Origin: Patescibacteria group bacterium | GTDB taxonomy: Bacteria > Patescibacteriota > Minisyncoccia > RBG-13-40-8-A | Assembly (NCBI GenBank): GCA_018897295.1 | Contig: JAHILA010000014.1 | Span: forward strand, 67,891 to 131,890 | Length of the DNA stretch: 64,000 nt | Direction: 5' to 3' | Made by a program: the position numbers and the translations under genes | Shown here: piece after piece, positions 2,940 to 44,143 of the stretch | Layout of the letters: each line of letters starts with the position of its first letter | Position numbering within the stretch: the stretch's first letter is position 1 | Notes under the pieces: model-generated | What the model was told of the DNA's origin: nothing | Database searches by the model: none | Seen by the model: only the letters and a program-made list of their open reading frames with translations

Positions 2940-3980
2940 ATGAACAAGAAATCAACCATTTCTAAAGACATTTCTAAAAAAATAGAGAAAGCGCTTTTGC
3001 ATTTGAGCAATCCGAGAGTCAGGGAGGTTATTGAGCGCCGATTTGGTTTAAGAAATGGCAAAAGCGAAACTCTGGAAGCTATTGGCCAAAACTATGGCAT
3101 AACCAGAGAAAGGGTCAGGCAATTAGAAGAAAATGGGATAAAAATTCTTAAATCAGAAAAAGTTCTGCCGTTTTTTGAGGCAGCTTTCGATTATTTGAAT
3201 GATTTGTTTTTCGCGCATGGCCATATTATGGGAGAGAATTATTTGTATCATACTGCAACTGGAACAACCGAACCCCATGCTTCAAAGGGCTATATTTATT
3301 TGGCCTTGACCTTAGGCGAGCCGTTCCAGAGAATAGCCAGAGATGAAAAATTCCATCCTTACTGGGTTGCCCATAAATCTGCTCATCAGAAAGCCAAAGA
3401 AATTATTGATTTTTTGATTGACCATTTTAAGAAGCACGATAAAGTTTTTCATGAATCAGAAGTTTTTGATTTGCTTTCCAGAAAGCATTCCAATATTCCT
3501 TCAAAAATGTTTTCCGTTGTTTTGGAAATCTCTAGAGAAATTAATAAGAATATTTTCGAAGAAATCGGCTTAAGTTATTGGCCGGAGATTTCTCCGCAGG
3601 GAGTAAAAGACCGTGCCTATTTAACCCTTAAAAAAGAAGGCGAACCTCGCCATTTTACTGCTATCACTGAGTTGATAAATAAAATATTCGTAGATAAGCC
3701 GGCTTATACCCAGACTGTTCATAATGAATTAATAAAAGACCCAAGATTTATTTTAGTGGGAAGAGGAACCTATGCCCTTACTGATTGGGGCTATGAATCA
3801 GGAACAGTGGAGGAAGTGATCCAGAAAACTTTGGCTGAAAACAAAAAACCGTTAACCAGGAAAGAAATTATTGATTCTGTTCTGACAAAACGGCAGGTTA
3901 GACCAAATACAATCATTTTGAACCTTCACCGGTCTCCAAAAGTGAAGAGATTGGAGGATGGAAAGTATATTTTAGCTTAA
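2940..3980 (+). CDS. sigma-70 region-4-like HTH domain protein with a C-terminal domain of unknown function
   Basis: N-terminal RVREVIERRFGL...GITRERVRQLEENGIKIL matches the sigma-70 region 4 helix-turn-helix; the rest is unrecognised. Confidence 0.5.
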   Translation: MNKKSTISKDISKKIEKALLHLSNPRVREVIERRFGLRNGKSETLEAIGQNYGITRERVRQLEENGIKILKSEKVLPFFEAAFDYLNDLFFAHGHIMGENYLYHTATGTTEPHASKGYIYLALTLGEPFQRIARDEKFHPYWVAHKSAHQKAKEIIDFLIDHFKKHDKVFHESEVFDLLSRKHSNIPSKMFSVVLEISREINKNIFEEIGLSYWPEISPQGVKDRAYLTLKKEGEPRHFTAITELINKIFVDKPAYTQTVHNELIKDPRFILVGRGTYALTDWGYESGTVEEVIQKTLAENKKPLTRKEIIDSVLTKRQVRPNTIILNLHRSPKVKRLEDGKYILA

Positions 3981-4012: not shown

Positions 4013-5299
4013 ATGACTGAAATCCTTAATATTTATAGGGATATATTTGTGAGTTATTGGTGGATTATCGCACCAATAGCTCTTTTTTTATTTTTAAGGC
4101 ATTTCTGGGTGAATTATCTTATTGTTAAATATGTACGGGGTTTGGAATGGATTGTTTTGGAAGTAAAATTTCCACGCGACGTGATTAAGACGCCAAAGGC
4201 AATGGAACAATTTTTTGCCGGTATCCATGCTTCCGAAAAGGCAAGAAAGTTCAAGGAGAAATATATAAAAGGCGACCTTCCTCCATGGTTTAGTATTGAG
4301 ATGCTTGGGCATGGCGGGGAAATTCATTTTTATATCAGGACCGAAGTGAAATACAGGAATCTTGTTGAATCTCATCTCTATGCCCAATATCCCCAAGCAG
4401 AAATAATAGATGCAGAGGATTATGTAGATAGTATCCCGCCTGGCACTCCGACCGCGGATTTTGATGCCTGGGGCACAGAATTAATTTTAGCCAAGGAGGA
4501 TGCTTATCCTATTAGGACTTATCCGGTGTTTTTTGAGGAAAAAGAAGCAGAAGAAAGAACTGACCCCATTGCCGGACTTTTTGAATTTTTAAGCAGTTTG
4601 AATCCGAAAGAAAGTATTGCCATTCATATCTTAATCAGCCCAATCAGCCCAGTTACTGACAAACAATGGATAAAAGACGGGGAAAATCTAGTTGGAAAAA
4701 TAATTGGCAGAGAAGTAAAAGAAAGCAAGAAAGGATTAATGATAGTAGAAGAAGCTAGAAGCTGGCTTGAAGCGTTAGGTCAGGGTATTGTAAGATTTTT
4801 CGGTTTGGGTGGCGAGGAAAGCGCTGTTGGCAAAGAAAAGAAAGTCGAAAAAGTTATGCCGTTTTTAACCCCAGGCCAGAAAGAAGTTGTTTTGGCAGTT
4901 GAAAGGAATATTGGGAAAATAGGATTTAAGACAATGATAAGATTTATGTATTGGGCGCCTAAAGATCTTTTTTCCAAAGACAAGCCAACAGTAGTAGCTG
5001 GATTTTTCAGACAATTTAATACCCAAAATCTAAATGGTTTTAAAATTAATAAAAAATCCACTCCTGGCAGGGGGAAAATCTTCAAAAGAAAAAGAGAGCC
5101 GGGACAGAGAAGATTTTTTGTGGGTATTTTCAAGAAAAGATTTTTTCCGTTTCATAAACTTAAGACCAGAGGATTTGTTTTTAATATTGAGGAACTGGCA
5201 ACAATTTTTCATCTTCCTGGAAAGTTTGTTGAAGCTGAAAGATTGTCTAAGATTGAAGCTAAAAAAGGCGGACCGCCTAGCGAGCTTCCAACAATATGA
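4013..5299 (+). CDS. membrane-anchored domain protein, homologous to the N-terminal ~400 aa of the fused ATPase at 12137-14593 (split-gene version)
   Basis: N-terminal TM then a soluble domain; FSIEMLGHGGEIHFYIRTEVKYRN and ELATIFHLPG align with IVLEMAVPFSGTEISFYLAAPRKYET and EVASIFHFPL of the 818-aa paralog; 4-bp overlap with the next gene. Confidence 0.6.
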   Translation: MTEILNIYRDIFVSYWWIIAPIALFLFLRHFWVNYLIVKYVRGLEWIVLEVKFPRDVIKTPKAMEQFFAGIHASEKARKFKEKYIKGDLPPWFSIEMLGHGGEIHFYIRTEVKYRNLVESHLYAQYPQAEIIDAEDYVDSIPPGTPTADFDAWGTELILAKEDAYPIRTYPVFFEEKEAEERTDPIAGLFEFLSSLNPKESIAIHILISPISPVTDKQWIKDGENLVGKIIGREVKESKKGLMIVEEARSWLEALGQGIVRFFGLGGEESAVGKEKKVEKVMPFLTPGQKEVVLAVERNIGKIGFKTMIRFMYWAPKDLFSKDKPTVVAGFFRQFNTQNLNGFKINKKSTPGRGKIFKRKREPGQRRFFVGIFKKRFFPFHKLKTRGFVFNIEELATIFHLPGKFVEAERLSKIEAKKGGPPSELPTI

Positions 5300-6834
5300 A
5301 CGAAAATGAGATAACAATTTTAGGCGAGACCAATTTTCGCAACAAGCGGACCAAATTTGGAATAAAGATGGAAGACAGACGCCAGCACGTATATGTAGTT
5401 GGAAAAACTGGCACAGGCAAATCAGAACTTCTGAAAAATATGGCAATTCAAGATATCCAAAATGGGCATGGCGTGGCAATTGTTGATCCGCATGGAGATT
5501 TTGCTGAAACAATGCTTGATTTTGTTCCGTCTAACAGGGTAAATGACGTAATTTATTTCAATCCAGCTGATTTAGAATATCCTATTACTTTTAATATTAT
5601 GGAGAATGTTGAGCCAGAATATCGCCATTTGGTTGTTTCTGGTTTAATGGGGGTATTTAAGAAAATCTGGCCTGATGTTTGGAGCGCAAGGATGGAATAT
5701 ATTTTAAGAAATGCGATTTTATCATTACTGGAATATCCCGGCTCAACTCTTTTGGGTGTTAATCGTCTTTTAGCTGACAAGGATTATCGCCAGAAAGTGC
5801 TTGGAAAAGTTACTGATCCCAGCGTAAAAGCGTTTTGGACAAATGAATTTGCCAAGTATCCTGACCGATTCAGGGAAGAAGCAGTAGCGCCGATTCAAAA
5901 CAAAATAGGACAGTTTATTTCTACCCCCTTAATTAGAAATATTATTGGACAGGTTAAATCGTCAATTGACATGCGCGAAATAATGGACCAAGGGAAAATT
6001 TTAATTGTTAATCTTTCAAAAGGAAGAGTAGGTGAGGATGTCAGTCAATTATTGGGAGCCCTGGTAATAACTAAGTTGCAGCTTGCAGCTATGAGCAGGG
6101 TAGATATATCTGAATACGAAAGAAAGGATTTTTATCTTTATGTTGATGAGTTTCAGACATTTGCCACAGATGCTTTTGCAACCATTCTTTCTGAAGCGAG
6201 AAAATACCATCTCTGTCTGACTTTGGCCCATCAATATGTTGCCCAATTGGACTCCATGGGAGACAAAGGCAAGAATACTAAAGTAAGAGATGCGATTTTC
6301 GGTAATGTCGGAACCCTGATTACTTTTCGTGTTGGCGCAGATGATGCCGAGTTTTTGGAAAGGGAATTTCTGCCAGTGTTTATTGCCGATGATTTAGTTA
6401 ATCTGACCAAATATACTATTTATTTAAAACTAATGATTGACGGCGTTGCTTCTCGGGCTTTCAGCGCTCAGACCATACCTCCGTTTCTAATTCCTGAAAA
6501 ATCTTTTGAGGATAAAATTATCAAGCTCTCCCGCGAAAGATATACTATATCGCGAAAAGCAGTAGAGGAGAAAATTTCCAGATGGAGTGAGGCAACTGAA
6601 ACAGAAGAAGAAGCGAAAAAATTTGAGGCAGTTTGTTCTGATTGTGGTAAAAAGACCAAAGTTGCTTTCAAGCCGGACGGGGTAAGGCCGGTCTATTGTT
6701 CATCCTGTTTACAAAAAGAAAGAGAGAAAAAACCAAATGTTCAGCTAATTAAAAAGCAAAAACCGGAAATTGATCTTGCTGGCGTCCGCGAAGCAATCAA
6801 AAAAGCAGTAGAGTATAAAAAAGAGGAAAAATAA
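5296..6834 (+). CDS. VirD4/TraG/TraD-like (AAA_10/DUF87-type) P-loop ATPase with C-terminal CxxC-x17-CxxC zinc ribbon
   Basis: Walker A GKTGTGKS, Walker B DFYLYVDEFQ, VDPHGDF and AHQ motifs as in T4SS coupling/VirB4-like ATPases; C-terminal CSDCGKK...CSSC. Confidence 0.65.
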   Translation: MNENEITILGETNFRNKRTKFGIKMEDRRQHVYVVGKTGTGKSELLKNMAIQDIQNGHGVAIVDPHGDFAETMLDFVPSNRVNDVIYFNPADLEYPITFNIMENVEPEYRHLVVSGLMGVFKKIWPDVWSARMEYILRNAILSLLEYPGSTLLGVNRLLADKDYRQKVLGKVTDPSVKAFWTNEFAKYPDRFREEAVAPIQNKIGQFISTPLIRNIIGQVKSSIDMREIMDQGKILIVNLSKGRVGEDVSQLLGALVITKLQLAAMSRVDISEYERKDFYLYVDEFQTFATDAFATILSEARKYHLCLTLAHQYVAQLDSMGDKGKNTKVRDAIFGNVGTLITFRVGADDAEFLEREFLPVFIADDLVNLTKYTIYLKLMIDGVASRAFSAQTIPPFLIPEKSFEDKIIKLSRERYTISRKAVEEKISRWSEATETEEEAKKFEAVCSDCGKKTKVAFKPDGVRPVYCSSCLQKEREKKPNVQLIKKQKPEIDLAGVREAIKKAVEYKKEEK

Positions 6835-6835
6835 T

Positions 6836-8143
6836 ATGGATAATTTGGAAGAAATAAAGAAAATTAGAATACAAAAACTGGAAAATTTGGAAAAAGCTGG
6901 AATTAATGCGTATCCGGCCGAAGTTTTGCGTACGCATACGAACAAGGAGGCGATAGATGAATTTGAAAAACTGGCAAACAAAAAAATAACCCTGGTTGGC
7001 AGGGTGCGTTCAATTAGGGAGCATGGTGGTTCGACTTTTTGCCATATTGAAGATGGTTCTGCACAGATTCAAGTTTATTTTAAAAAAGATGAAGTCAACG
7101 AAAAGCAATATAAGTTATTTTTGGAAAACACGGATATCGGCGATTTCATCCAGGTTTCTGGTAAATTGTTTTTAACAAAGAAAGGTGAGAAAACCTTATT
7201 AGTTTCATGTTGGAAAATTTTAACCAAATCATTATTGCCATTGCCGAGCGAATGGTATGGATTAGAAGATGTTGAAGAAAGATTCAGAAAAAGATATTTG
7301 GATTTGATGATGAATAGGGAAGTTAAAGATAAATTCATAAAGCGCTCGGAGATTATCAGAAAAATCAGGGAGTTTTTGAATGAAAACGGATTTTTGGAAG
7401 TTGAAACTCCCATGCTGCAAACAATGGCTGGTGGAGCAAAGGCCAGGCCGTTCGAAACGCATCTTAATGCCCTGGATATGGATTTGTATTTAAGGATTGC
7501 GCCGGAATTATATTTAAAAAGATTATTAGTCGGCGGATTTGAAAAGGTTTATGAGTTGGGCAGAAATTTCAGAAATGAAGGCATGGACAGGGAGCATAAT
7601 CCGGAATTCACTATGTTGGAATTTTATGCAGCTTATTGGGATTACAATAAAATGATGGATTTTACGGAAAAATTATTGGGTTCATTAGATAAGAAGATTT
7701 TCGGAAAAAGGTTTAAAAAAGTGGAATACAGCAAAGCTGTCGGAAATAAGGATGAAAAAGAGGTTTTTGCAAAAATTAAAGAACCGTGTTTTATCATTAA
7801 TCATCCCATAGAAATTTCGCCTTTGGCGAAAAAACTGGACTTTAAAAAAGCCGCGCGCTTCCAATTAATTGTTAATGGATTGGAAATTGCCAATGGATTT
7901 TCCGAATTAAATGACCCATTTGACCAAACAGAGAGATTTAAAGCGCAGGAAATAGAGAGAAGAGAAGGCAGTTTGGAAGCGCACCAGTATGATAAGGATT
8001 TTATTGAAGCATTGGAATACGGTATGCCGCCAGCCGCAGGAATTGGCATTGGCATAGACCGCTTGGCAGTCTTATTAACTAATTCAAAAACAGTGCGGGA
8101 AATAATTTTATTCCCGACAATGAAGCCGAAAAATGAACAATAA
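6836..8143 (+). CDS. lysS: lysyl-tRNA synthetase (class II)
   Basis: NPEFTMLEFYAAYWDY and GMPPAAGIGIGIDRL class II LysRS motifs; N-terminal OB-fold region. Confidence 0.9.
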   Translation: MDNLEEIKKIRIQKLENLEKAGINAYPAEVLRTHTNKEAIDEFEKLANKKITLVGRVRSIREHGGSTFCHIEDGSAQIQVYFKKDEVNEKQYKLFLENTDIGDFIQVSGKLFLTKKGEKTLLVSCWKILTKSLLPLPSEWYGLEDVEERFRKRYLDLMMNREVKDKFIKRSEIIRKIREFLNENGFLEVETPMLQTMAGGAKARPFETHLNALDMDLYLRIAPELYLKRLLVGGFEKVYELGRNFRNEGMDREHNPEFTMLEFYAAYWDYNKMMDFTEKLLGSLDKKIFGKRFKKVEYSKAVGNKDEKEVFAKIKEPCFIINHPIEISPLAKKLDFKKAARFQLIVNGLEIANGFSELNDPFDQTERFKAQEIERREGSLEAHQYDKDFIEALEYGMPPAAGIGIGIDRLAVLLTNSKTVREIILFPTMKPKNEQ

Positions 8144-8151
8144 ATAAAATT

Positions 8152-9381
8152 ATGATTGATGTTAAATTATTACGAGAAAATCCGGAAAAAGTGAGAAAGG
8201 CCTGCGTAAACAAAGGCGCTAAAATTGATATTGATAAAGTTCTGGAATTAGACAAAAAGAAAAGGGAATTAATTCAGGAAATTGAAAAACTGACAGCTGA
8301 GCAGAGAAAAATGGGTAAAGATCAAATAGGAGAGGCGAAAGAACTAAAAAATAAAATCAAGGAGCTGGAACCAGAATTGAAAAAAGTAGAGCTAAATTTC
8401 AATATATTATTTTCACAAATCCCGAATCTGTCATTAGATGATGTGCCAATTGGAAAAGATGAATCGGAAAATAAAATTATTGGAGAAGTAGGTAAAAAGC
8501 CAAAATTTGGTTTTCAACCTAAAGATTATTTAGAAATCGCAGAGAAATTGGATATTATTGATGTAAAACGAGCAGCCAAAGTTTCGGGTTCGCGCTTTGG
8601 TTATCTGAAGGGCGGGGCAGCACTCTTGGAATTCGGATTAGTTGGTTTGGCCTTAAAAGTTCTTAAAAGGGAAGGATTTATTCCAGTTATCCCGCCAGTA
8701 ATGATAAAGCCGGAAATGGCCAAAGGTATGGGTTATATAGAGCAAACGAATAGTGAGGAAGCATATTATATCAATAGCGACAATCTATATCTTGTAGGCA
8801 CATCAGAACAATCATTGGGCGCAATGCACGCGGACGAAGTTTTTAATGAAAATGAATTGCCAAAAAGATATGTTGGTTTTTCAACCTGTTTTAGAAGAGA
8901 AGCAGGTTCTTATGGCAAGGATACAAAAGGGATTTTAAGAGTTCATCAATTTGATAAGGTTGAAATGTTTAGTTTTTGCAAGTCAGAGGATTCAATAAAA
9001 GAACACAAATTTCTGTTGTCTTTGGAGGAAAAACTGATGAACCTTTTAAAAATACCTTACCGTGTTGTGCAAATGTGCACAGGAGATTTAGGCCATCCAG
9101 CTGTAGCTAAATATGACATCGAGGCATGGATGCCTGGCCAGAATAAATACAGAGAAACGCATTCCACCTCAAATTGCACTGATTTTCAGGCGCGAAGATT
9201 AAACATTAAATATAAAACAAAAAACGGATTGGAATTTGCTCACACCTTAAATGGCACGGCTTTTGCAATCGGTAGAACATTAATTGCGATTATTGAAAAT
9301 TATCAGCAAAAAGACGGAAGCATTAAAATCCCAAAAGCTTTAAGAAAATATACCGGAATAAAATGTATCACTACAAAATAA
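8152..9381 (+). CDS. serS: seryl-tRNA synthetase
   Basis: MIDVKLLRENPEKV N-terminal coiled-coil arm and class II core motifs (FRRE, GSRFGYLKG). Confidence 0.9.
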   Translation: MIDVKLLRENPEKVRKACVNKGAKIDIDKVLELDKKKRELIQEIEKLTAEQRKMGKDQIGEAKELKNKIKELEPELKKVELNFNILFSQIPNLSLDDVPIGKDESENKIIGEVGKKPKFGFQPKDYLEIAEKLDIIDVKRAAKVSGSRFGYLKGGAALLEFGLVGLALKVLKREGFIPVIPPVMIKPEMAKGMGYIEQTNSEEAYYINSDNLYLVGTSEQSLGAMHADEVFNENELPKRYVGFSTCFRREAGSYGKDTKGILRVHQFDKVEMFSFCKSEDSIKEHKFLLSLEEKLMNLLKIPYRVVQMCTGDLGHPAVAKYDIEAWMPGQNKYRETHSTSNCTDFQARRLNIKYKTKNGLEFAHTLNGTAFAIGRTLIAIIENYQQKDGSIKIPKALRKYTGIKCITTK

Positions 9382-9947
9382 GAAAGAAAAAAAGAACAAA
9401 TAAAAGAGCGATAATCTGGATTATCTCTCTTTTTATATTAGCTGGATTGGCTTATATTTTATTTTTCTCATCTATCGGAGAGAATTTATTTAAAAAGAAG
9501 CCAGAAATAAGAGACGAGCAGGAAATAGGTATTATTTGTAAAGAGAATACTGGTAATTGTTTTTATTTTAACAAAGATGGAATTATTTTTAAGGATGCGT
9601 TGCTCACAAGCGGCAGTTTAATTTTACTGATAAAAGATTATTCCGAGAAGGATTATAGATTATGGGACAAGATTTTAGATAAGAGTTTTCTGGATATTTT
9701 ATTGCATGCGAAAGACGAATTATTCTCTAAGATGAGTTTAAGGGCTGCGAGTTTTGATATAGAATCATTTCCAATAGAAATATTGAGGGTTGTGACCAAT
9801 GAGAGTTGGTATATATTATTTAGCTTAAAAAGAGACATAAAAAGCCAGCTTTTGGCTTTAAAAGTGGCTTTAGATGAGAAAATCGAGAATAGGATGAGTC
9901 TGCAGTATATTGATTTGAGAATTGAAAACAGAATTTACTATAAGTAA
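9363..9947 (+). CDS. FtsQ/DivIB-like cell-division protein (POTRA-like), tentative
   Basis: Basic N-terminus, a single TM, and a C-terminal YIDLRIENRIYY resembling the FtsQ beta-domain terminus. Confidence 0.35.
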   Translation: MYHYKIRKKKRTNKRAIIWIISLFILAGLAYILFFSSIGENLFKKKPEIRDEQEIGIICKENTGNCFYFNKDGIIFKDALLTSGSLILLIKDYSEKDYRLWDKILDKSFLDILLHAKDELFSKMSLRAASFDIESFPIEILRVVTNESWYILFSLKRDIKSQLLALKVALDEKIENRMSLQYIDLRIENRIYYK

Positions 9948-11720
9948 TTACGGAATATAATATACAAAAATTGAATTGCCGATAATTGTTACTGGTTCGT
10001 ACTTATTGAGCCAGACATAGTAGTCAGTTCTTATTTCAAATCCTTTTGTCGCTATGGCGCGATTCTGCTGCAGAAAAGTTGCGGAAACAGCTAACCAGCT
10101 GTTTTTTGCTTTTTGCGGATCATAATCCGCATGCCATTCTTCAGCTTTGTCTCCTAAATAATATTTCGCATTTGCCCCGCCGAAATAATCGATTTTAATT
10201 TTCTGGATGTTATTTTTCTCAACCCATTCTGCCAGACGTTTTAAATCCTGGCCCCAGTCGAGATTGGAGTCGGTTACATATATATAACCGTTTTTAGCGC
10301 CGCCAATTAATTCGTTAAAATAAGTGAGGTAATAAGGATAGATTGATAAGGATGAAAACGCATACCATGCCAATAAAGTTCCGAGTAGCAGGCAACAAGT
10401 AATAAAAACTCTTTTTTTATTATGGATTTGATTGAATAATTTTTTTATCTGGCCAGAAACAAGAATATAAACAAATGGAAATGTAGGGAGAATATGACGT
10501 ATGCCGATATTTAAATTGCTGGTAATACTTGCGCCCCAATATATGGCTAGAAAAATCAGCATTGCAATTTCTGTAAAATGGTTTTTCAGAAAATTTTCAA
10601 CTTGCCTCGCTGGCAGGCGGGTTTTACGGAACTTAGTTTGCCAAGCCAGGAACAAAAGAGCAATAATGGTTAATATGTGTAGCACTAATGGTTCCTTTAT
10701 GGCATATACAATAGGGAAATAACTCTTCCAACCCTTATTGGTTACATCTCCCAGGAAATAAGTAGTATTTCCGCCAGTTGCTCTTTGGAAAACCATGAAC
10801 AATCCTAGGGCATACTGGGCATACGGCCTCAAAATCGGCTGTTTAGACATCCAAATTGTCAGGTCGCCGATTGGTTTTACTGGAAATTGCGAAGCAATAA
10901 AAGTTGTGTCGGAAATTTGTTTTTCTTGCGGGTAATTATAAGTATGGAACAGATAAACAGGATAAACAAGAATATAGCCGATAATCATAATCAGGGCGAA
11001 TCTAAAAATATAATGAAAAAATGTTTTCCAGAATTGTCTATTTTCCCGCCATTTGATATAGACCCAAATCAGAATCAAGATTCCAAAATAGGGGACAAGC
11101 AAAATCAAAGAGAATTTTATAAGCTGGGCAATGCCAAAAGCTATTCCTGCCCAAAACAGATTTTTCCCGTTTTGGTTCTTCAAATATTTTATGAAGAAAT
11201 AAGAGGCAAAGAAAAATGCGAAAGCAGCGCCGACATCAGTAGTAACATAACGACCGTGCGCTAGGAATGTTGGAGAAAAAGAAAAAAGGAAAACCGCAAG
11301 CAAAGCAGAAAGTTTTCCGTACAATTCTTTTGTCCAACGATAAATGAAAAAACCCAAAAGAATCAGTAGTAGAAGCATTGGAATTCTGGACCAGAAAATA
11401 ATTTTATCAGCGTTGTTATTAGATTCGTATAGAAATTTAAACCCGAAATCCCACTGACTGTTTACTTCGCTTGTCCAGGATTTTAAATCTTTCGGAAAGT
11501 TGATATCATTCATAAAAAGCGCGGGAATGGCTGATAAATCCTTCAATAAAGGCGGGTGTTCCGGATTCAAACGCATATCTTTTTGGGTTAAATAAGAATA
11601 GCCCGCAGGAGTGTGGGCAACTTCGTCCATAATCGCTGATTCCTGTTTTTGGCTGATAGTTGCCAGGACCAGCATTAATAAAACCAAAACTATAGATAAA
11701 ATTGGCGCTAATTTTTTCAT
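9948..11720 (-). CDS. GT39/ArnT/PMT-like membrane glycosyltransferase (polyprenyl-phosphate-sugar dependent)
   Basis: Multi-TM protein with a DEVAHTPAGYSY...EHPPL N-terminal loop motif typical of the ArnT/PMT_2 family; carries an in-frame GC palindrome (LPARQ). Confidence 0.7.
   Translation of the reverse strand: MKKLAPILSIVLVLLMLVLATISQKQESAIMDEVAHTPAGYSYLTQKDMRLNPEHPPLLKDLSAIPALFMNDINFPKDLKSWTSEVNSQWDFGFKFLYESNNNADKIIFWSRIPMLLLLILLGFFIYRWTKELYGKLSALLAVFLFSFSPTFLAHGRYVTTDVGAAFAFFFASYFFIKYLKNQNGKNLFWAGIAFGIAQLIKFSLILLVPYFGILILIWVYIKWRENRQFWKTFFHYIFRFALIMIIGYILVYPVYLFHTYNYPQEKQISDTTFIASQFPVKPIGDLTIWMSKQPILRPYAQYALGLFMVFQRATGGNTTYFLGDVTNKGWKSYFPIVYAIKEPLVLHILTIIALLFLAWQTKFRKTRLPARQVENFLKNHFTEIAMLIFLAIYWGASITSNLNIGIRHILPTFPFVYILVSGQIKKLFNQIHNKKRVFITCCLLLGTLLAWYAFSSLSIYPYYLTYFNELIGGAKNGYIYVTDSNLDWGQDLKRLAEWVEKNNIQKIKIDYFGGANAKYYLGDKAEEWHADYDPQKAKNSWLAVSATFLQQNRAIATKGFEIRTDYYVWLNKYEPVTIIGNSIFVYYIP
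10601..10622. repeat. GC-rich palindromic element copy (CCTCGCTGGCAGGCGGG), in frame within the GT39 gene
   Basis: GC-rich island in an AT-rich gene; encodes RLPARQ; same core as other copies. Confidence 0.5.
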
Positions 11721-11760
11721 ATAGTTTAATTATATCATCTAATGTGGTACAATAGTAGAT

Positions 11761-12135
11761 ATGGAAGAGATATATAAAAATTTTGAGGCAAAAAAAGCCG
11801 AGGCTTTGCAGCAGCCAGAAAACAAAGAAGGAGAGTTGAGTCCGGAAAAACAAAAAGAAATTTTAAAAGAAGCTATTTCCGAGAGAATAACTACAGCCCA
11901 GCCAGTAATTAGCCAGCAGCAAGTTGCTGCGCAGACAGCGCAGAAATTAAAAGACCAGCCAAAAGACAGACAGATTCAGCTTCTGATTGAAATGGCTTTT
12001 GAAAAAGGAATTGTCGAAGCAGTGGAAGTTGCCAAAAATCTTGACAATCCTTATCTTTTGGATGAATTCCACGATGCCTTGGTAGATGAGTTTTATAAAA
12101 AATTAGTCGAACAAGGAAAATTGAAAGCGATATAA
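11761..12135 (+). CDS. hypothetical protein, translationally coupled to the downstream ATPase
   Basis: 124-aa ORF whose stop lies 1 nt before the ATG of the 12137 gene; TACAAT -10-like box just upstream. Confidence 0.45.
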   Translation: MEEIYKNFEAKKAEALQQPENKEGELSPEKQKEILKEAISERITTAQPVISQQQVAAQTAQKLKDQPKDRQIQLLIEMAFEKGIVEAVEVAKNLDNPYLLDEFHDALVDEFYKKLVEQGKLKAI

Positions 12136-12136
12136 T

Positions 12137-14593
12137 ATGGAGACAATGCAATTTATTTATATTGTCAGCGGATTGATTGTACTTCTAATCGGCGGATTGG
12201 CGTTTATTTTGTTAGTTGAAAGATCGAGGGGCAGGGGATTAATTGTCAGGGCTTTGAATATGAGTTTGTTTTTAATCAAGATACCCAGAGAGACAAAAGA
12301 GGACTTGTCATCTGAAGAAAAGAAAAACAGGATTGCTGTAATGGAGCAATTTTTATCAAATTTGGGCTCTTTGAGGGAAAGGGGCTCAAAAATTCAGTTT
12401 TCCTATGGCCAGCCGTATATTGTTTTGGAGATGGCTGTTCCATTTTCTGGCACAGAAATTTCTTTTTATCTCGCGGCTCCCAGGAAATACGAAACATTTC
12501 TGGAAAAACAAGTTTACGGATTTTATCCAAAAGCCATTGTACAAAAGGTTGAAGATTACAATATTTTCAATCCCCAAGGGGCTTGCGCCGGCGGATTTTT
12601 AAAGCTGGAGAAAAACAGTATTTTGCCGATTAAAACTTATAAAGATTTAGAAATTGACCCATTGGAAAACATTTCTACTGCATTGAGCAAGATAGAAGAA
12701 ACCGGCGAGGGCGGGGCATTACAGATTGTTTTAAAGCCATCTCTGAAAAACTGGGATAAATTCGGATTGTCTATAATCAGAAAAATGAATCGGGGCCAAA
12801 GTTTTAATGACGCCATAAAAGGTAAAGAAATAAAAAAGCCCAAAAAAGACGAACCACAGCAAGTTCAACCGCAAGTTACTCCTGATGCCCAGGAAACAAT
12901 AAAATCTTTGCAATCCAAAATATCAAAAACCGGATTTGAGGTGAATATCCGGCTTTTATTTTCAGGAAAAACACAGGAAAGGTCAGAAGAGCTTTTATCC
13001 CATATGGAAGGTTCTTTTTATCAATTCGGCGCGCCTAATCTTAATTCTTTGAGATTGGGAAAGATGAAAAAAAATGGGCTGAAAAAACTTTGCTTCTACT
13101 TCTCATTCAGAGTATTTAGTAAAAAACAAAAAATGATTTTAAATAGTGAGGAGGTCGCAAGTATTTTCCATTTTCCATTAACTTCGCTTAGTTCTCCCAA
13201 AATGAAATGGCTGAAAGCCAAGGAATCAGTTCCGCCGATAAATATTCCCAAAGAAGGCGTATTGCTCGGCAAGAATATTTTTAGGGGCGAGGAAACTGAA
13301 ATCAGAATGGCTGAAAATGACAGGCGTAGGCATTTTTACGTTATTGGGCAAACTGGAACAGGCAAGACAAAATTAATGATTAATATGATTAAGCAGGATA
13401 TTATTAATGGCAAAGGAGTTTGTTTTATTGATCCGCATGGTTCAGATGTTGATGATATTTTGGGAATGATTCCGCCAGAAAGAGCAGAAGATGTTATTTA
13501 TTTTAATCCAGGAGACATTGAAAGGCCAATGGGTTTAAATATGCTTGAATATGACCCGAAATTTCCAGAACAAAAAACTTTTCTTGCTAATGAAATGATA
13601 AATATTTTCAAGAAAATATTTCCTGAAGCGCCAGAAGGAATGGGTCCTGTGTTTCAGCAATATATGAGAGGCGCGTTATTATTGGTTATGGATGACCCAG
13701 AATCAGGAGCAACGCTTTTAGAGGTTCCCAAGGTTTTGGCTGATGCAGAATTCAGAAAATACAAGCTTTCAAAAACAAACAATATTGTAGTTAAAGATTT
13801 TTGGGAAAAGGAAGCTGAAAAGGCAGGAGGAGAGGCCTCGTTGGCAAACATTGTTCCTTATATCACTTCCAAAACAAATATATTTTTAGCAAATGATATT
13901 ATGCGCCCTATTTTGTGCCAGCAGAAAAGCTCTTTTGATTTCAGAAAAATAATGGACGAAAAGAAAATTTTCTTAGCCAACCTATCAAAAGGCAAGATGG
14001 GAGATTTAAATAGTTATCTATTAGGTTTGATTATTGTTGGGAAGTTTTTAATGGGAGCTTTTTCCAGAGTAGATACCCCAGAAGATCAAAGGCCTGATTT
14101 TTATCTTTATATTGATGAATTTCAGAATTTTACAACAGACAGTATTTCAACAATTTTAGCTGAAGCAAGAAAATATAAATTAAATTTAATTATAGCTCAT
14201 CAATTCATTGGGCAATTAGAAGATAAAATTAAAGATGCAGTATTTGGAAATGTCGGTAGTATGGCTGTTTTTAGGGTTGGAGCCAATGATGCAGAGTTCT
14301 TAGTAAAACAATTTGAGCCGGTTTTTAGCGCACAAGATTTATTAAATATTGATAATTTCAATGCTTACTTGAAGCTTTTGATAAATAATACGACCAGCGT
14401 GCCATTCAATATTAAATGCAATCTTCCGGCAAAGGGAGATTCTCGAATTGCAATGAAAATTAAAGAACTTTCACGTATGAAATATGGACGCGAAAAAACA
14501 ATTGTGGATAAAGAAATTTTTGAAAGATCTAAAATTAAAACGGACAATACTCCTGGCGCTGATGTTTTATCAGAAGAAATAAATTTAAAATAA
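12137..14593 (+). CDS. fused membrane N-domain plus VirD4/TraG-like P-loop ATPase (paralog of 4013+5296)
   Basis: N-terminal TM; Walker A GQTGTGKT, Walker B DFYLYIDEFQ, AHQ and FRVGANDAEFL; collinear with the split pair 4013-5299/5296-6834. Confidence 0.65.
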   Translation: METMQFIYIVSGLIVLLIGGLAFILLVERSRGRGLIVRALNMSLFLIKIPRETKEDLSSEEKKNRIAVMEQFLSNLGSLRERGSKIQFSYGQPYIVLEMAVPFSGTEISFYLAAPRKYETFLEKQVYGFYPKAIVQKVEDYNIFNPQGACAGGFLKLEKNSILPIKTYKDLEIDPLENISTALSKIEETGEGGALQIVLKPSLKNWDKFGLSIIRKMNRGQSFNDAIKGKEIKKPKKDEPQQVQPQVTPDAQETIKSLQSKISKTGFEVNIRLLFSGKTQERSEELLSHMEGSFYQFGAPNLNSLRLGKMKKNGLKKLCFYFSFRVFSKKQKMILNSEEVASIFHFPLTSLSSPKMKWLKAKESVPPINIPKEGVLLGKNIFRGEETEIRMAENDRRRHFYVIGQTGTGKTKLMINMIKQDIINGKGVCFIDPHGSDVDDILGMIPPERAEDVIYFNPGDIERPMGLNMLEYDPKFPEQKTFLANEMINIFKKIFPEAPEGMGPVFQQYMRGALLLVMDDPESGATLLEVPKVLADAEFRKYKLSKTNNIVVKDFWEKEAEKAGGEASLANIVPYITSKTNIFLANDIMRPILCQQKSSFDFRKIMDEKKIFLANLSKGKMGDLNSYLLGLIIVGKFLMGAFSRVDTPEDQRPDFYLYIDEFQNFTTDSISTILAEARKYKLNLIIAHQFIGQLEDKIKDAVFGNVGSMAVFRVGANDAEFLVKQFEPVFSAQDLLNIDNFNAYLKLLINNTTSVPFNIKCNLPAKGDSRIAMKIKELSRMKYGREKTIVDKEIFERSKIKTDNTPGADVLSEEINLK

Positions 14594-28824: not shown

Positions 28825-30288
28825 ATGAATAAGTATGAACCTACAATTGGGCTGGAGATTCACGTTGAATTAAAAACAAAGACAAAAATGTTTTGTTCTT
28901 GTTTGAACGACCCTCTGGAAAAAGAAGCAAATAAAAATATTTGTCCGATTTGTACTGCTCAGCCAGGGAGTTTGCCTGTTATTAACGAAGAAGCAATTTA
29001 CAGTGTAATAAAAGCAGGATTGGCTTTAAACTGCAAAATTGCAGAGAAAACTTGGTTTGAAAGAAAGAATTATTTTTACCCTGATTTGCCAAAAGGTTAT
29101 CAGATTACGCAATTTGAAGCTCCTTTATGTTTTAAGGGAGAATTGAATAATATTAAAATCAGGAGAATACATTTGGAAGAAGATACTGGAAGATTAATGC
29201 ATGACAAAGGCGATCTACCTGCCGGTAGGCAGGGATATTCTTTAGTTGATTATAATCGCGCTGGCATGCCTTTAATGGAACTAGTTACAGAGCCGGACAT
29301 CCATTCTGCTGAACAGACAAAGAATTTTGCCCAAGAATTGCAATTAATTTTAAGATATCTGGGAATTTCCGATGCTGATATGGAAAAGGGACAGATGCGC
29401 GTGGAAGCAAATATAAGTTTAAATATGGGCACAAAAGTTGAAGTGAAAAACCTTAATTCATTCAAGAGCGTTGAAAAAGCAATTGAATACGAGATTATCA
29501 GGCAGCAAAGGATTTTGGAAAAAGACGACCTGCCTGCCGGTAGGCAAGGTAAGGTAGAACATGAAACAAGAGGATGGAATGACGCGAAGCAGGAAACATT
29601 CTCCCAGAGAATAAAGGAAACATCTGATGATTATCGTTATTTCCCAGAGCCGGATTTGCCGCCACTAGACATTAAAGCTGAATTGATTAAGAAATTGCAG
29701 GCAGAAATTCCTGAGTTGCCGCAAGCAAGAAGGAAAAGATTTAAAAGAGAGTATAAATTACCAGAAAAAAGCGCAGAAGTATTGGTGAATTTTAAATATT
29801 TGGCTGATTTTTTCGAGCACGCAGTAAGCGAGCTTAATGCTTGGCTAAAGTCGGGCAAGATTAAAACCGATATCAATAGATTGATAATTTTAAGCTCCAA
29901 TTATATTATTACTGAGTTTCCAAAATTTGTTTCTACAAGTCGGGAGATTAAAATAACTGCGGAAAATTTTGCAGAATTGATTTATTTGACTTTTATCGGC
30001 GAGGTTTCCTCAAGCGGGACGCAGGAAGTTTTAAAAGAAATGTTTAGAACTGGCGCAGACCCTTCGCAAATTATTGAATCTAAAAACCTGAAGCAATTAA
30101 GCAAAGAAGGGGACTTGGATAAGATTGCGGAGAAAATAATAAAAAACAATCCCCAGCCAGTTGAGGATTACAAGCAAGGAAAGGAAACCGTATTGCAGTT
30201 TTTAGTTGGTCAGGCAATGCGCGAGACCAAAGGCAAAGCCAATCCCGAGATAGTTGCCAAGATATTGCGGGATATATTGACAAAATGA
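28825..30288 (+). CDS. gatB: Asp-tRNA(Asn)/Glu-tRNA(Gln) amidotransferase subunit B
   Basis: YEPTIGLEIHVELKTKTKMFCSC N-terminus and C-terminal GatB/YqeY domain; two in-frame LPAGRQG insertions. Confidence 0.9.
   Translation: MNKYEPTIGLEIHVELKTKTKMFCSCLNDPLEKEANKNICPICTAQPGSLPVINEEAIYSVIKAGLALNCKIAEKTWFERKNYFYPDLPKGYQITQFEAPLCFKGELNNIKIRRIHLEEDTGRLMHDKGDLPAGRQGYSLVDYNRAGMPLMELVTEPDIHSAEQTKNFAQELQLILRYLGISDADMEKGQMRVEANISLNMGTKVEVKNLNSFKSVEKAIEYEIIRQQRILEKDDLPAGRQGKVEHETRGWNDAKQETFSQRIKETSDDYRYFPEPDLPPLDIKAELIKKLQAEIPELPQARRKRFKREYKLPEKSAEVLVNFKYLADFFEHAVSELNAWLKSGKIKTDINRLIILSSNYIITEFPKFVSTSREIKITAENFAELIYLTFIGEVSSSGTQEVLKEMFRTGADPSQIIESKNLKQLSKEGDLDKIAEKIIKNNPQPVEDYKQGKETVLQFLVGQAMRETKGKANPEIVAKILRDILTK
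29215..29234. repeat. GC palindrome copy (CCTGCCGGTAGGCAGG) in gatB
   Basis: Encodes DLPAGRQGY. Confidence 0.6.
29527..29549. repeat. GC palindrome copy (CCTGCCTGCCGGTAGGCAAGG) in gatB
   Basis: Encodes DDLPAGRQGK, about 310 nt from the first copy. Confidence 0.6.
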
Positions 30289-30708: not shown

Positions 30709-32580
30709 TCAGGCGAATTTTTTAAACCAGGTAAGCTGGCGCTTGGCATATTGAAGAGTATGGAGTTTAATCGTCTCGATGATTTGTTTTCTGTTCTCGG
30801 AGTTTTTCCATTCTGCGTAGCCAATAGTATTTTTCAATACTGTTGTCCAGCCATATTTTTTGACTAATTTATTCACTTCTTTTTCCAGCCCCATTTTAAT
30901 CATTTTATCAACCCTTTTATCTATTAATTTTTTCAGCTCTGCTGAAGATTTTTCAATTTTAATATACTGGACACTGAATCGGGGACTGCTTTTTAATTGA
31001 GGTATTGGTTTATTGGTTTTAATGATAATCTCCAACGCCCTGATTAATCTGCGTTTGTTTTTAGCATCAATATTTTTTGCTCGATTCGGGTCGAGTTTTT
31101 TTAATTGTTTAAATAATTCTTTCTCGGTTTTCTTTTCTAATTCTTTTCTTAATTTCCAATCAGGTTTAACTTCTGGAATTACTATTTCATTAACCATTGC
31201 CTGAATATAAAATCCAGTGCCGCCGCAAATAATCGGTGTTTTTCCTTGTTTATAAATTTTATCTATTGCTTGTAATGCCAATTTTTTGTACTCTGTGACA
31301 CTAATCTGTTTTTGGGGATTAGCAATATCTATTATATGGTGAGGGATGTCTTGCATTTCTTTCTTCGTGGTCTTGCCTGTGCCAATATCCATTCCTTTAT
31401 AAACTTGCCTTGAATCAGCTGAAATAATTTCACCATTTATTTTTTTAGCCAGTTTGATGGCAAAAGTGGATTTTCCCGAAGCAGTTGGTCCAATAATGAC
31501 AATCAGTTTAGGTTTTGTTTTGGTTAATTTATTTAAAACTCTCCACCTCCTTACCTTTTCTTTCCATAGGACATCGTCTTTAAATCTGCTGGCCAACGTT
31601 CCGGGCCTGGTTGAATATTTATTAATATAAGCCATGTCAAATCCGACTTTTTTGAATAATCCGACTGTATTCTCAAATTGTTTTTTTGTTTCGCCGGGAA
31701 AACCCACAATTACATCTGTGGTAATTTTTGCTTGAGGGATTTTTGCACGGATTTTTCTAATTAAATTAAGATATTTTTCTGTTGTGTATCCGCGATTCAT
31801 CTTTTTCAGAATTTCATTGTCTCCACTTTGAACCGGTAAATGGATTTCTTTGCTGATTTTTGGCGATTCAGTGATTACATCAATCAATTCTGCGGAGAAA
31901 TCTTTAGGATGGGAAGTAAGAAATTTTACTGTAAAATCACCCGGGATTCCGGAAATAAGTTTAAGCAATATTGGAAAAGTAGTTTTGCCACCCTGCGGGT
32001 GGTCAGCCGTGGGCTGATCTTTATATGAATTAACGTTTTGTCCGAGTAAAATAATCTCTTTATATCTATTTTTAATGAGATTTTTTATTTCAAAAATTAT
32101 ATTTTTTGTTGATCTTGAAACCTCTCTGCCGCGGGTGTAGGGGACTGCGCAGTAAGAGCAGAAATTGTTGCAGCCGGTCATTATGGGTACAAATGCTGAT
32201 TTTTGATTTGTCTGCCTCGCTGGCAGGCAGGCCTGCCTGCCAGCGAGGCAGGAGTATTTTGGTTTCATCTCCAGATATTTTTTCCCGAGAAATTCATTGA
32301 TTGATAAAATCTCGTTAAAGAAAGATTTAAATTTAGGTTTATCTGCCTTTAAAACGCAGCCAGTTAAAATTTTCTTTGCCTTGATTTTTGCAAATTTTTT
32401 CTTTAGGCCGAAGATTCTATCAATCGCGCTTTGTCGTATAGAGCAGGCGACAACTACTATCAGGTCAGCATTTTCCATTTTATCCGTATTCCTATAATTT
32501 CGTTGTTCTAAAAATGAAGCGATTCTCTCGGAATCGCTTTCATTCATTTGGCAGCCGAATGTTTTGATGTAATACCTCAT
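30709..32580 (-). CDS. bifunctional fusion: MiaB-like radical-SAM methylthiotransferase (N-terminal, no TRAM domain) plus tRNA dimethylallyltransferase MiaA (C-terminal)
   Basis: N-terminus MRYYIKTFGCQMNESDSE (MTTase N domain) and CNNFCSYCAVPYTRGRE radical SAM motif; C-half GPTASGKST P-loop and ADSRQVYKGMDIGTGK MiaA motifs. Confidence 0.75.
   Translation of the reverse strand: MRYYIKTFGCQMNESDSERIASFLEQRNYRNTDKMENADLIVVVACSIRQSAIDRIFGLKKKFAKIKAKKILTGCVLKADKPKFKSFFNEILSINEFLGKKYLEMKPKYSCLAGRQACLPARQTNQKSAFVPIMTGCNNFCSYCAVPYTRGREVSRSTKNIIFEIKNLIKNRYKEIILLGQNVNSYKDQPTADHPQGGKTTFPILLKLISGIPGDFTVKFLTSHPKDFSAELIDVITESPKISKEIHLPVQSGDNEILKKMNRGYTTEKYLNLIRKIRAKIPQAKITTDVIVGFPGETKKQFENTVGLFKKVGFDMAYINKYSTRPGTLASRFKDDVLWKEKVRRWRVLNKLTKTKPKLIVIIGPTASGKSTFAIKLAKKINGEIISADSRQVYKGMDIGTGKTTKKEMQDIPHHIIDIANPQKQISVTEYKKLALQAIDKIYKQGKTPIICGGTGFYIQAMVNEIVIPEVKPDWKLRKELEKKTEKELFKQLKKLDPNRAKNIDAKNKRRLIRALEIIIKTNKPIPQLKSSPRFSVQYIKIEKSSAELKKLIDKRVDKMIKMGLEKEVNKLVKKYGWTTVLKNTIGYAEWKNSENRKQIIETIKLHTLQYAKRQLTWFKKFA
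32212..32252. repeat. tandem inverted GC palindrome (perfect 41-nt palindrome) in frame in the miaB domain
   Basis: CTGCCTCGCTGGCAGGCAGG-C-CTGCCTGCCAGCGAGGCAG; encodes CLAGRQACLPARQ on the minus strand. Confidence 0.65.
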
Positions 32581-43704: not shown

Positions 43705-43734
43705 TCAGGATAACTATAAAAGATTTGATTCAAA

Positions 43735-44120: not shown

Positions 44121-44143
44121 CTCAACTCGTCTTAATTTTGTTC

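Follow-up and report, generated by a model that had tools for sequence, protein, structure and literature searches.

Both ATPase modules in the window, by which is meant the whole 64,000-nucleotide stretch of Patescibacteria DNA analysed here, are best explained as chromosomal members of the T4SS coupling protein (T4CP) branch of the FtsK-HerA ATPases, and more precisely of a sub-type in which a DUF8128 domain precedes the ATPase. I put the probability of this reading at roughly 0.6. Assignment to the VirD4/TraG/TraD-type family is solid; the substrate and the partner machinery of the modules are inferred only.

Patescibacteria account for much of bacterial diversity and rely on host cells. 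In the only genetically tractable species epibiotic growth requires a T4SS, whose clusters nevertheless encode neither a coupling protein nor a relaxase (PMC10633639). The two modules are obvious candidates for this missing T4SS motor, or alternatively for a separate DNA-handling device. Should the genes prove to be ordinary T4CPs serving the Patescibacteria T4SS, this would amount to a useful annotation and not to a discovery. The genes and features concerned are listed below.

2940-3980, + strand: protein of 346 aa with sigma-70 region 4 and HARE-HTH domains (Pfam)
4013-5299, + strand: stand-alone DUF8128 protein of 428 aa, the N-half of the split module
5296-6834, + strand: T4CP-type P-loop ATPase of 512 aa without a TM segment (Pfam), the other half of the split module
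6619-6723, + strand: CxxC-x17-CxxC zinc ribbon, aa 442-476 of the split ATPase (zf_Tbcl_2, TIGR04272)
9948-11720, - strand: PMT/PMT_2 (GT39/GT83-like) membrane glycosyltransferase (Pfam; context only)
11761-12135, + strand: acidic small protein of 124 aa, p124 (no Pfam family)
12137-14593, + strand: fused DUF8128 and T4CP-type ATPase protein of 818 aa
14616-15305, + strand: GtrA-family membrane protein (Pfam GtrA_DPMS_TM, 1.5e-19; context only), with dnaX next

Architecture of the split and fused modules

A first-pass annotation had proposed that the two-gene module is collinear with the single 818-aa gene, and alignments bore this out: over residues 37-371 of the fused product the 428-aa protein aligned with 25% identity (E 3e-23), and over residues 373-794 the 512-aa protein aligned with 42% identity (E 2e-109). 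The split occurs exactly at the linker between the DUF8128 and ATPase domains. The start of the 512-aa gene overlaps the end of the 428-aa gene by 4 nt (ATGA), and the ATPase is translationally coupled to the gene at 4013-5299.

The core motifs quoted in the first-pass annotation, DFYLY(V/I)DEFQ, AHQ and FRVGA(D/N)DAEFL, were present in both copies. In the split ATPase, Walker A is G36-S43 (nt 5401-5424, GKTGTGKS) and Walker B is D278-E285 (nt 6127-6150, within DFYLYVDEFQ), accompanied by AHQ and FRVGADDAEFL; conservation of its catalytic motifs reaches 90% or more across 71 orthologues. The corresponding positions in the fused protein are G404-T411 (nt 13346-13369, GQTGTGKT) and D654-E661 (nt 14096-14119, within DFYLYIDEFQ), with AHQ and FRVGANDAEFL, and in 37 fused orthologues the catalytic motifs are either invariant or conserved to 90% or more. 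The C-terminal ribbon claimed for the split ATPase was confirmed as a treble-clef motif, C447-x2-C450-x17-C468-x2-C471, matching Pfam zf_Tbcl_2 (8.3e-15) and TIGR04272 (6.3e-15). A CxxC-x(10-25)-CxxC pattern recurs in 42/71 split-ATPase orthologues and is absent from the sequence of the fused paralogue.

According to precomputed annotation, PF26449 (DUF8128) matches the exact window proteins and all listed homologues. The domain consists of one N-terminal hydrophobic helix and a soluble alpha/beta domain of ~350 aa, whose predicted fold comes nearest to that of the TrwK/VirB4 NTD and as such bears on the divergence of VirB4 and VirD4; DUF8128 found no mention in the literature searched. In the split protein the membrane helix spans aa 10-29 and is followed by the soluble domain. 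What had been called a membrane N-domain is therefore, by structure prediction, a single-pass anchor with a soluble VirB4-NTD-like domain. The fused protein, for which the NCBI start at Met4 gives 815 aa in place of the 818-aa ORF, carries its helix at ~aa 5-27, DUF8128 up to ~aa 360 and the ATPase at ~aa 375-800, and its AF2 monomer model shows helices inserted between Walker A and Walker B (~aa 478-607).

Family assignment and plasmid relatives

T4CP membership was judged at Pfam gathering cut-offs. The split ATPase scored 42.3 bits for TrwB_AAD_bind (cut-off 20.5), 27.1 for T4SS-DNA_transf (20.1), 26.5 for TraG-D_C (22) and 43.6 for DUF87 (23.2), while the fused ATPase reached 25.5 for TrwB_AAD_bind and 20.7 for T4SS-DNA_transf and, at 21.9, fell just under the cut-off of 22 for TraG-D_C. 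The TrwB_AAD_bind match covers profile positions 10-311 of 387. Among the models named in the first-pass annotation, T4SS-DNA_transf thus matched in both copies, DUF87 and TraG-D_C matched in the split copy, and AAA_10 failed to match; this last model, CagE_TrbE_VirB and TraC_F_IV gave no Pfam match at E up to 5. The resemblance to T4SS coupling proteins was upheld both by these gathering-level matches and by the position of the plasmid homologues described below.

The closest PDB sequence to the ATPase was TrwB, although similarity beyond the P-loop is weak, and R388 TrwB (PDB 1e9r) starts with two TM helices and lacks any large N-domain. The T4CP trait of two such helices before the NBD was not found in the window proteins, which have one helix and the 350-aa DUF8128 instead. 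Scores for the NCBIfam TraD/VirD4 equivalogs were far below cut-off (SXT_TraD 52.6 vs 366; CD1115 36.2 vs 250), and the canonical Gram-positive VirD4, pSK41 TrsK, showed no similarity at the sequence level. In its fold the ATPase resembles the VirB4 CTD and DndH-C no less than TrwB. The VirB4 layout of an N-terminal domain and a C-terminal ATPase domain with VirB4 fold was likewise found, and yet, for VirB4 itself (R388 TrwK, PDB 7o42/7o43; T. pseudethanolicus VirB4 CTD, 4ag5), the window proteins showed no sequence-level similarity to the NTD or to AAA_10 and CagE_TrbE_VirB.

Two other families were considered and rejected. The motor domain, multi-pass N-terminal membrane domain and gamma wHTH of FtsK/SpoIIIE were not found together in these proteins, and for HerA or defence ATPases, which have a HAS-barrel N-domain and, in a variable defence island, a nuclease, methylase or Sir2 partner, only the ATPase core matched (DUF87, mad8, DndH-C), in a fixed housekeeping synteny. 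Placement in an unrelated ATPase family, or a lack of conservation in related genomes, had been named as grounds for abandoning the first-pass proposal; neither was encountered.

Actinomycetota, Bacillota and haloarchaea also have plasmids with the DUF8128 and ATPase architecture, fused or split, and contrary to the first-pass suggestion the family is not specific to the lineage. In Embleya sp. NBC_00896, the plasmid protein WP_331738717.1 (812 aa) aligned to fused residues 91-791 (E 3e-67) and is encoded in the order PrgI(VirB3), VirB4-like, WP_331738717.1, Replic_Relax, NlpC/P60. A B. subtilis plasmid protein, WP_144625398.1 (913 aa), aligned to fused residues 93-789 (E 2e-37); its gene adjoins one that NCBI annotates as replication-relaxation family (no Pfam match for that gene) and lies near TcpC/D/E and an AAA_10 VirB4. 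On a haloarchaeal plasmid of Natronorubrum the split form adjoins VirB6-like and conjugal-transfer genes. Association with a relaxase and a VirB4-containing T4SS was thus found for the Embleya, B. subtilis and Natronorubrum homologues, and those of Actinomycetota and Bacillota lie between VirB4 and a relaxase-family gene, which is the coupling-protein position. Like the window genes, the plasmid homologues are collinear over DUF8128 and ATPase and have the same Pfam ATPase matches, at an identity of only 24-26%. They differ in their surroundings of relaxase-family, VirB4, VirB3/PrgI, TcpC/D/E and cell-wall hydrolase genes, whereas the context of the window genes has no T4SS genes, and they lack the zinc ribbon, the sigma-4/HARE-HTH partner and the p124 partner. 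The plasmid homologues are uncharacterised and are annotated as 'T4SS conjugative DNA transfer family' or 'DUF87'.

Conserved neighbours and distribution in Patescibacteria

Pfam matches and ORFs agreed with the neighbours listed in the first-pass annotation (sigma-4-like HTH, aaRS, GT39-like, 124-aa ORF and GtrA). The modules sit in a secDF, aaRS and dnaX setting that includes class II aaRS genes, with aaRS genes 1 nt away in the same operon-like string. As claimed before, the larger window ORFs scanned and the called genes listed for ~2,100-24,600 included no relaxase, pilin or further T4SS component, and no association with a relaxase or VirB4-T4SS was seen among these ORFs; T4SS coupling therefore remains a proposal.

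The suggested test of neighbourhood conservation came out positively, with modules and surroundings kept across many Patescibacteria. The partner of the split module has a sigma-70 region 4 (aa 24-71) and a HARE-HTH domain (aa 222-283), both present in 48/48 aligned orthologues, and its sigma-4 part matched RpoD/SigA region 4 in the PDB (3e-20). The partner gene lies directly 5' of the DUF8128 gene in 72/74 loci, a linkage kept in four loci without an adjacent ATPase; the ATPase is directly 3' of DUF8128 in 68/72 loci, and general synteny, as with SecF, was seen at 50/64. A promoter-like TTGACA-17-TATATT occurs at 2891-2919, 5' of the partner gene.

The fused gene is paired with p124, which has a pI of 4.9 and no hydrophobic segment, and whose stop lies 1 nt before the fused gene. 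Its 924 homologues (119-156 aa) belong to no Pfam family, and an alignment of four orthologues adjoining fused genes revealed a C-terminal PYLLDEFHDxLVDE motif. In loci L002-L008 and L011 p124 adjoins the fused gene and a PMT gene lies 5' of the pair, and the order fused-GtrA-DnaX is repeated in L002, L003 and L005. The only basis for the suggested surface-interaction role is PMT/GtrA adjacency, an arrangement seen for the fused copy only, in the four extra loci examined and in close relatives of the window, and the role was not supported.

The homologues numbered more than 7,900 and 2,110, and every one with a named source came from Patescibacteria, where both modules are near-universal across classes. 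Split and fused Patescibacteria clades were sisters in a rough NJ tree. The modules stem from an early duplication in Patescibacteria, and both copies are chromosomal and vertically inherited among housekeeping genes, the split copy usually zinc-ribboned and the fused copy paired with the small acidic protein.

Orphan T4CP homologues, about two per genome and rarely near virB4, are already known. The relevant passages of Quinonero-Coronel et al. (2025, PMC12102498) report 5,713 VirD4-type homologues in 2,918/3,035 Patescibacteria genomes, with only 148 near virB4, and suggest exaptation for the orphans; the window genes almost certainly belong to this same set. These passages give counts only; they mention neither the N-terminal DUF8128 domain nor the two paralogue forms, split and fused, nor the conserved partners. 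They also place VirB4 in 2,417 genomes, ~500 fewer than the T4CP homologues, and state that in S. epibionticum the t4cp homologue is non-essential and the T4SS genes are essential; both points argue against an obligatory T4SS role.

Proposed mechanism and alternatives

In the preferred reading, the helix and VirB4-NTD-like domain would anchor a hexameric ATPase ring to the membrane on its cytoplasmic side, and the ring would spend ATP on recruiting a polymer substrate and pushing it toward a membrane conduit, which may be the Patescibacteria T4SS, with its genes elsewhere, or a different channel. In view of the sigma-4/HARE-HTH neighbour and the zinc ribbon, the substrate is more likely to be DNA, and each of the two paralogues probably has its own substrates or adaptors. 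The two ancient paralogues, the VirB4-NTD-like domain, the sigma-4/HARE-HTH tie and the plasmid relatives offer handles for genetics and structure work.

It is conceivable, if rather doubtful, that the modules handle DNA independently of any T4SS, with the sigma-4/HARE-HTH protein binding DNA and passing it to the DUF8128-anchored ring, which would move DNA at the membrane alone or with a non-T4SS channel, for instance ComEC or a Sec-proximal site, in host DNA import, export or segregation. The link of this protein to DUF8128 is tighter than the SecF synteny and survives where no ATPase is adjacent, the ribbon is frequent in split ATPases, and both observations favour such a machine, as does the excess of T4CP homologues over VirB4 and their rarity near virB4 in the passages cited above. 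Furthermore, it is established that one FtsK-like ATPase is enough for DNA transfer in Streptomyces (discussed in PMC13492992). However, adjacency is weak evidence in compact genomes, where aaRS genes sit in the same string, and the sigma-4/HARE-HTH protein might just as well be a factor associated with RNA polymerase that has no relation to the ATPase. For the Saccharibacterium TM7x, a paper reportedly mentions ftsK, so that a role in replacing FtsK may not be needed. A bolder version remains speculative: sigma-4/HARE-HTH protein, DUF8128 scaffold and T4CP motor would form a near-universal T4SS-independent DNA translocation machine, the fused copy with its acidic adaptor a second variant, possibly for DNA import or export at the host interface, in an architecture keeping an ancestral VirB4-like organisation that predates the divergence of VirD4 and VirB4.

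The N-domain fold and overall domain order would also suit VirB4-type assembly or energising ATPases, anchored like VirB3-VirB4 fusions and not acting as substrate-receptor coupling proteins. This is unlikely: VirB4 families failed to match where T4CP families exceeded their cut-offs, the DUF8128 profile reached an hhalign probability of <1% against two VirB4-like proteins and TrsD, the plasmid clusters hold a separate canonical VirB4 alongside a DUF8128-ATPase that adjoins the relaxase-family gene, and Patescibacteria already possess a distinct VirB4 clade, as the passages of PMC12102498 describe. It is very improbable that the ATPases serve in anti-phage defence (of HerA, MADS or Dnd type) or are left over from an integrated conjugative element. 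The top PADLOC match was indeed mad8 (3.9e-18, 1.3e-14), followed by weaker HerA models, but no methyltransferase, nuclease, NurA or Sir2 was found in the window ORFs scanned, neither an integrase nor a relaxase nor repeat boundaries were observed, the GC content of 0.34-0.39 at positions 1-16,000 matches the protein-coding background in the rest of the window, and near-universal genes with a fixed housekeeping synteny across classes are the opposite of a defence island or mobile element.

The membrane anchoring proposed for the T4CP-type motor has a counterpart in pELF2 of Enterococcus faecium, where TraC (~420 aa with a TM segment) is encoded just 5' of the TM-less VirD4/FtsK-type TraD and is proposed as its membrane anchor, both proteins being essential for conjugation (PMC13492992). 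TraC and DUF8128 gave an hhalign probability of 0.5% and TraD matched only at the P-loop; the pair is an analogue of the split module and no relative, the two sharing a common design principle.

Two paralogous modules and their family

The first-pass annotation had described two paralogous VirD4/TraG-like ATPase modules, one split into two genes and one fused, at ORF coordinates that proved correct. With the two neighbouring genes 5' of the modules, the ORFs are:

2940-3980 (+), sigma-4/HARE-HTH protein, 346 aa
4013-5299, DUF8128 gene of the split module, 428 aa
5296-6834, ATPase gene of the split module, 512 aa
11761-12135, p124, an acidic 124-aa protein
12137-14593, fused DUF8128 and ATPase gene, 818 aa

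The collinearity of the split pair with the fused gene was confirmed by alignment of both halves: the 428-aa product matched fused residues 37-371 at 25% identity (E 3e-23), and the 512-aa product matched residues 373-794 at 42% identity (E 2e-109). The split-module genes overlap by 4 nt (ATGA) and are translationally coupled, and the gene break falls exactly within the linker, between '...GGPPSELPTI' and '...EITILGETNFR'. Both copies contain the ATPase motifs quoted earlier, and the split copy also has the CxxC-x17-CxxC ribbon (C447...C471). Across the orthologues of either paralogue, conservation of the catalytic motifs is complete or at least 90%, and 42 of the 71 split orthologues carry the zinc ribbon. 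The flanks also agree with the earlier description (Sigma70_r4/HARE-HTH, two class II aaRS genes, PMT/PMT_2 and GtrA), as does the lack of any T4SS, pilin or relaxase gene among the scanned window ORFs and the called genes at ~2,100-24,600. The GC content of the modules' part of the window (0.34-0.39) is at the level of the protein-coding background.

The family call was likewise right: both ATPase halves exceeded the Pfam gathering cut-offs of TrwB_AAD_bind, T4SS-DNA_transf and DUF87, and the split-copy ATPase passed that of TraG-D_C, so that, judged by sequence profile, both modules are type IV coupling proteins (T4CPs). The closest solved sequences to the ATPase were, in order, TrwB, DotL and HerA. 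The NCBIfam equivalogs TraD, VirD4, CedB and CedD matched around the P-loop only and far below their cut-offs, BLASTP found no similarity to the canonical Gram-positive VirD4 (pSK41 TrsK), and TrsE matched at the P-loop only. The pELF2 TraC/TraD proteins were rejected as homologues of the split pair and retained solely as an architectural analogue. Replacement of FtsK is a weakly disfavoured role; a paper on TM7x reportedly mentions ftsK.

Orphan T4CP homologues in this phylum have already been published. Quinonero-Coronel et al. 2025 (PMC12102498) screened 3,035 Patescibacteria genomes: 2,918 carried VirD4-type T4CP homologues, 5,713 in all, of which only 148 lie near virB4, and VirB4 was present in 2,417; the resulting ~2 homologues per genome probably correspond to the two paralogues seen here. 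The authors add that the S. epibionticum t4cp homologue is non-essential and its T4SS genes essential, and they regard exaptation of T4CP homologues as possible. Wang et al. 2023 (PMC10633639) describe a S. epibionticum T4SS cluster without recognisable coupling and relaxase proteins. Orphan Patescibacteria T4CPs are thus already in the literature as counts. Neither the consulted parts of both articles nor a DUF8128 literature search described the N-domain DUF8128 with its VirB4-like fold, the split/fused pair and its plasmid relatives, or the sigma-4/HARE-HTH and p124 partners; the present work adds some anatomical detail that is new and a set of partners that can be tested.

The DUF8128 domain and its plasmid relatives

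Precomputed annotation of identical proteins assigns the N-halves of both window proteins to PF26449 (DUF8128), a domain absent from the literature searched; a local Pfam search of the N-halves gave no match. Hydropathy showed one N-terminal helix per copy, followed by basic residues, and no hydrophobic segment in the split ATPase. Because basic residues trail the helix, the positive-inside rule suggests that the bulk of each DUF8128-bearing protein lies at the cytoplasmic side. The split N-protein was modelled with AF2 from an alignment of 43 sequences (pLDDT 71, pTM 0.72), and in a PDB search with this model the top seven Foldseek matches were seven TrwK/VirB4 chains (E 6e-4 to 1.6e-3, probability 0.99-1.00). 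Since the query lacks a P-loop, the matched part is presumably the VirB4 N-terminal domain (NTD), and the DUF8128 fold would be VirB4-NTD-like. The N-part, earlier called a membrane domain, is not one: a single helix is followed by a soluble domain with this predicted fold. The full-length fused AF2 model (pLDDT 77.7) gave the following matches:

Matches of the fused model, with scores
VirB4 C-terminal domain, T. pseudethanolicus (4ag5): 29.2
DndH C-domain: 27.9
TrwB: 26.3
HerA: 25.0
DotL: 22.9
Cag-beta: 20.4
TcpA: 17.0
FtsK: 16.5

By modelled fold, the window proteins therefore look like VirB4, in the N-domain as well as the ATPase. A sequence-level link of DUF8128 to the VirB4 NTD or TrsD was rejected by profile-profile comparison: when the DUF8128 profile, built from 43 sequences, was compared by hhalign with plasmid VirB4-like proteins from Embleya and B. 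subtilis and with TrsD of pSK41, the probabilities stayed below 1%, and a DUF8128 profile search of PDB sequences returned no match. As the sequence comparisons came back empty, the resemblance to VirB4 is structural only.

Searching 72,556 plasmids by tblastn yielded 788 records for the ATPase query and 11 for the N-domain query. An 812-aa protein on an Embleya plasmid aligned with fused residues 91-791 (E 3e-67), covering both domains, and lies in a cluster with the order PrgI(VirB3), VirB4-like protein, 812-aa protein, Replic_Relax protein and NlpC/P60 hydrolase, in which the VirB4-like neighbour carries AAA_10, P-loop_TraG and TraC_F_IV. In B. subtilis, plasmids 63-65 kb in size encode a protein of 913 aa that matched fused residues 93-789 (E 2e-37); 3' of its gene follow a gene annotated by NCBI as replication-relaxation family, for which Pfam gave no match, and then TcpC/TcpD/TcpE-like genes and an AAA_10 VirB4. 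A Natronorubrum plasmid encodes the N-domain and ATPase as separate adjoining genes, as in the window's split module, next to a VirB6/TrbL-like gene, a large 'conjugal transfer protein' and a pilin. From these three clusters it follows that the DUF8128 and ATPase architecture, fused or split, is the coupling-protein-position ATPase of monoderm bacterial and archaeal conjugation clusters. This plasmid context is the strongest functional anchor available for the modules, and the suggestion of a lineage-specific system has to be dropped. No experimental study of any member was apparent in the literature searched.

A Sulfitobacter mediterraneus plasmid (NZ_CP081110.1, 6983-8170) carries a lone 395-aa ATPase without DUF8128, which shares 42.6% identity with the split ATPase of the window and is the closest non-Patescibacteria relative in a rough tree. 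Its gene, flanked by a recombinase and transposases on this alphaproteobacterial plasmid, may have been transferred horizontally.

Conserved neighbourhood and a possible mechanism

Database searches returned >7,900 relatives of the fused protein and 2,110 of the split N-protein, all those with a source name being Patescibacteria, and 3,449 DUF8128 clusters emerged when 1.84 billion cluster representatives were searched with a profile. A one-genome-per-species scan found >587 loci, and neighbourhoods were read in the best 80 of these, which come from many lineages, among them Portnoy-, Nealson-, Azam-, Yanofsky-, Terry-, Sung-, Doudna-, Kerfeld-, Falkow-, Niyogi- and Moranibacteria. Within these best 80, conservation of the gene neighbourhood was evident: the sigma-4/HARE-HTH gene lies directly 5' of DUF8128 in 72/74 loci, the ATPase directly 3' in 68/72, and secF farther upstream in 50/64. 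The four exceptions (L019, L058, L068 and L077) keep the sigma-4/HARE-HTH and DUF8128 pair and have other genes in the ATPase place (YceG, MnmA and AlaRS in L068). Masked sequence does not account for the gap; the ATPase looks to have been relocated or lost, and DUF8128 in these genomes may rely on an ATPase whose gene lies at another site.

Downstream of the split module, the string of Asx-RS, SerRS, FtsQ-like, PMT, p124 and fused genes is kept in closer relatives only, and the order p124, fused gene, GtrA, DnaX with PMT nearby recurs in Yanofskybacteria and one other lineage, at an identity of 58%. p124 is a real protein family of 924 acidic members (119-156 aa) with a conserved C-terminal motif and no Pfam family. 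Both modules are strictly vertically conserved. In a rough NJ tree without support values, the Patescibacteria split and fused clades are sisters with the plasmid proteins outside, which tentatively points to a duplication early within the phylum.

The sigma-4/HARE-HTH protein, conserved across Patescibacteria classes, combines a primary-sigma-like region 4 (3e-20 against RpoD/SigA region 4 in the PDB) with HARE-HTH; sigma region 2 or 3 is absent from it. Region 4 of sigma factors also binds the RNA polymerase beta-flap, and the protein may therefore be an RNA-polymerase flap-binding factor with a purely positional link to the ATPase. It could equally be named as a candidate DNA adaptor for the ATPase. 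That it is a divergent Replic_Relax relaxase was rejected, there being no similarity.

VirB4 NTD holds its ATPase on VirB3 and VirB8. By this parallel, the helix and DUF8128 would hold a hexameric ATPase ring at the inner membrane face, and the ring would recruit a polymer and drive it to a conduit, which may be the Patescibacteria T4SS, with its genes at another locus, or a different structure. DNA would be a likelier substrate than protein because relatives among the T4CPs pump DNA, a treble-clef zinc ribbon is common at the C-terminus of the split ATPase, and the neighbour that constantly accompanies it carries two HTH modules of DNA-binding type.

The main rival, unlikely on balance, is a DNA machine independent of any T4SS. 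PMC12102498 places T4CP homologues in ~500 more genomes than VirB4 and reports the non-essential S. epibionticum homologue, and both facts argue against an obligatory T4SS role; the plasmid clusters anchor the coupling reading. That the modules are VirB4-type ATPases would fit the modelled folds and is improbable, since the sequence profiles disfavour it and a canonical VirB4 coexists on the plasmids. A defence system or mobile remnant is hardly credible given the context and universality of the modules: the ATPase core alone matches PADLOC mad8, HerA and DndH while its context is contrary, and the MADS preprint holds no domain detail for mad8.

Other features of the window

The rest of the scanned window ORFs are housekeeping genes, including dnaE, rpoB/rpoC, further aaRS, ftsW/rodA and an interrupted rRNA operon.

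Further features of the window
6836-8143 and 50800-52107 (+), paralogous 435-aa class II aaRS genes of Asp/Asn/Lys type
9363-9947 (+), 194-aa protein with one N-terminal membrane helix
11740-11763, extended -10-like TGgTACAAT
28825-30288, gatB
30709-32580 (-), MiaB-like/MiaA fusion, 623-aa single ORF
42086-50525, interrupted rRNA operon, comprising:
42086-43570, 16S, then tRNA-Ile and tRNA-Ala
44263-45567 (-), Mur-ligase gene
45704-46372, MscS-like membrane protein gene
46618-49342, 23S, just ~2,725 nt long where the model has 2,925 positions
49501-49980, 159-aa ORF before 5S
50411-50525, 5S

Both 435-aa synthetases carry tRNA-synt_2 and an OB anticodon domain and are presumably AspRS and AsnRS. 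The 194-aa protein overlaps the serS end by 19 nt and gave no Pfam match; it may be a divergent FtsQ/DivIB-like protein, because its positional counterpart in the compared locus L004 has a weak POTRA_1 match. A promoter/terminator scan found promoters not above shuffled controls (58 vs 49.9 +/- 7.9), with one suggestive site 5' of the sigma-4 gene. TGgTACAAT went unlisted in this consensus scan because it has no -35 element; it ends 6 nt 5' of the p124 ATG (11761), which suggests a leaderless or near-leaderless transcript start for the p124-fused unit. In the 623-aa ORF, a MiaB-like part (UPF0004 and Radical_SAM) and a MiaA part (IPPT), enzymes for consecutive steps of tRNA-A37 modification, are joined in a single chain.
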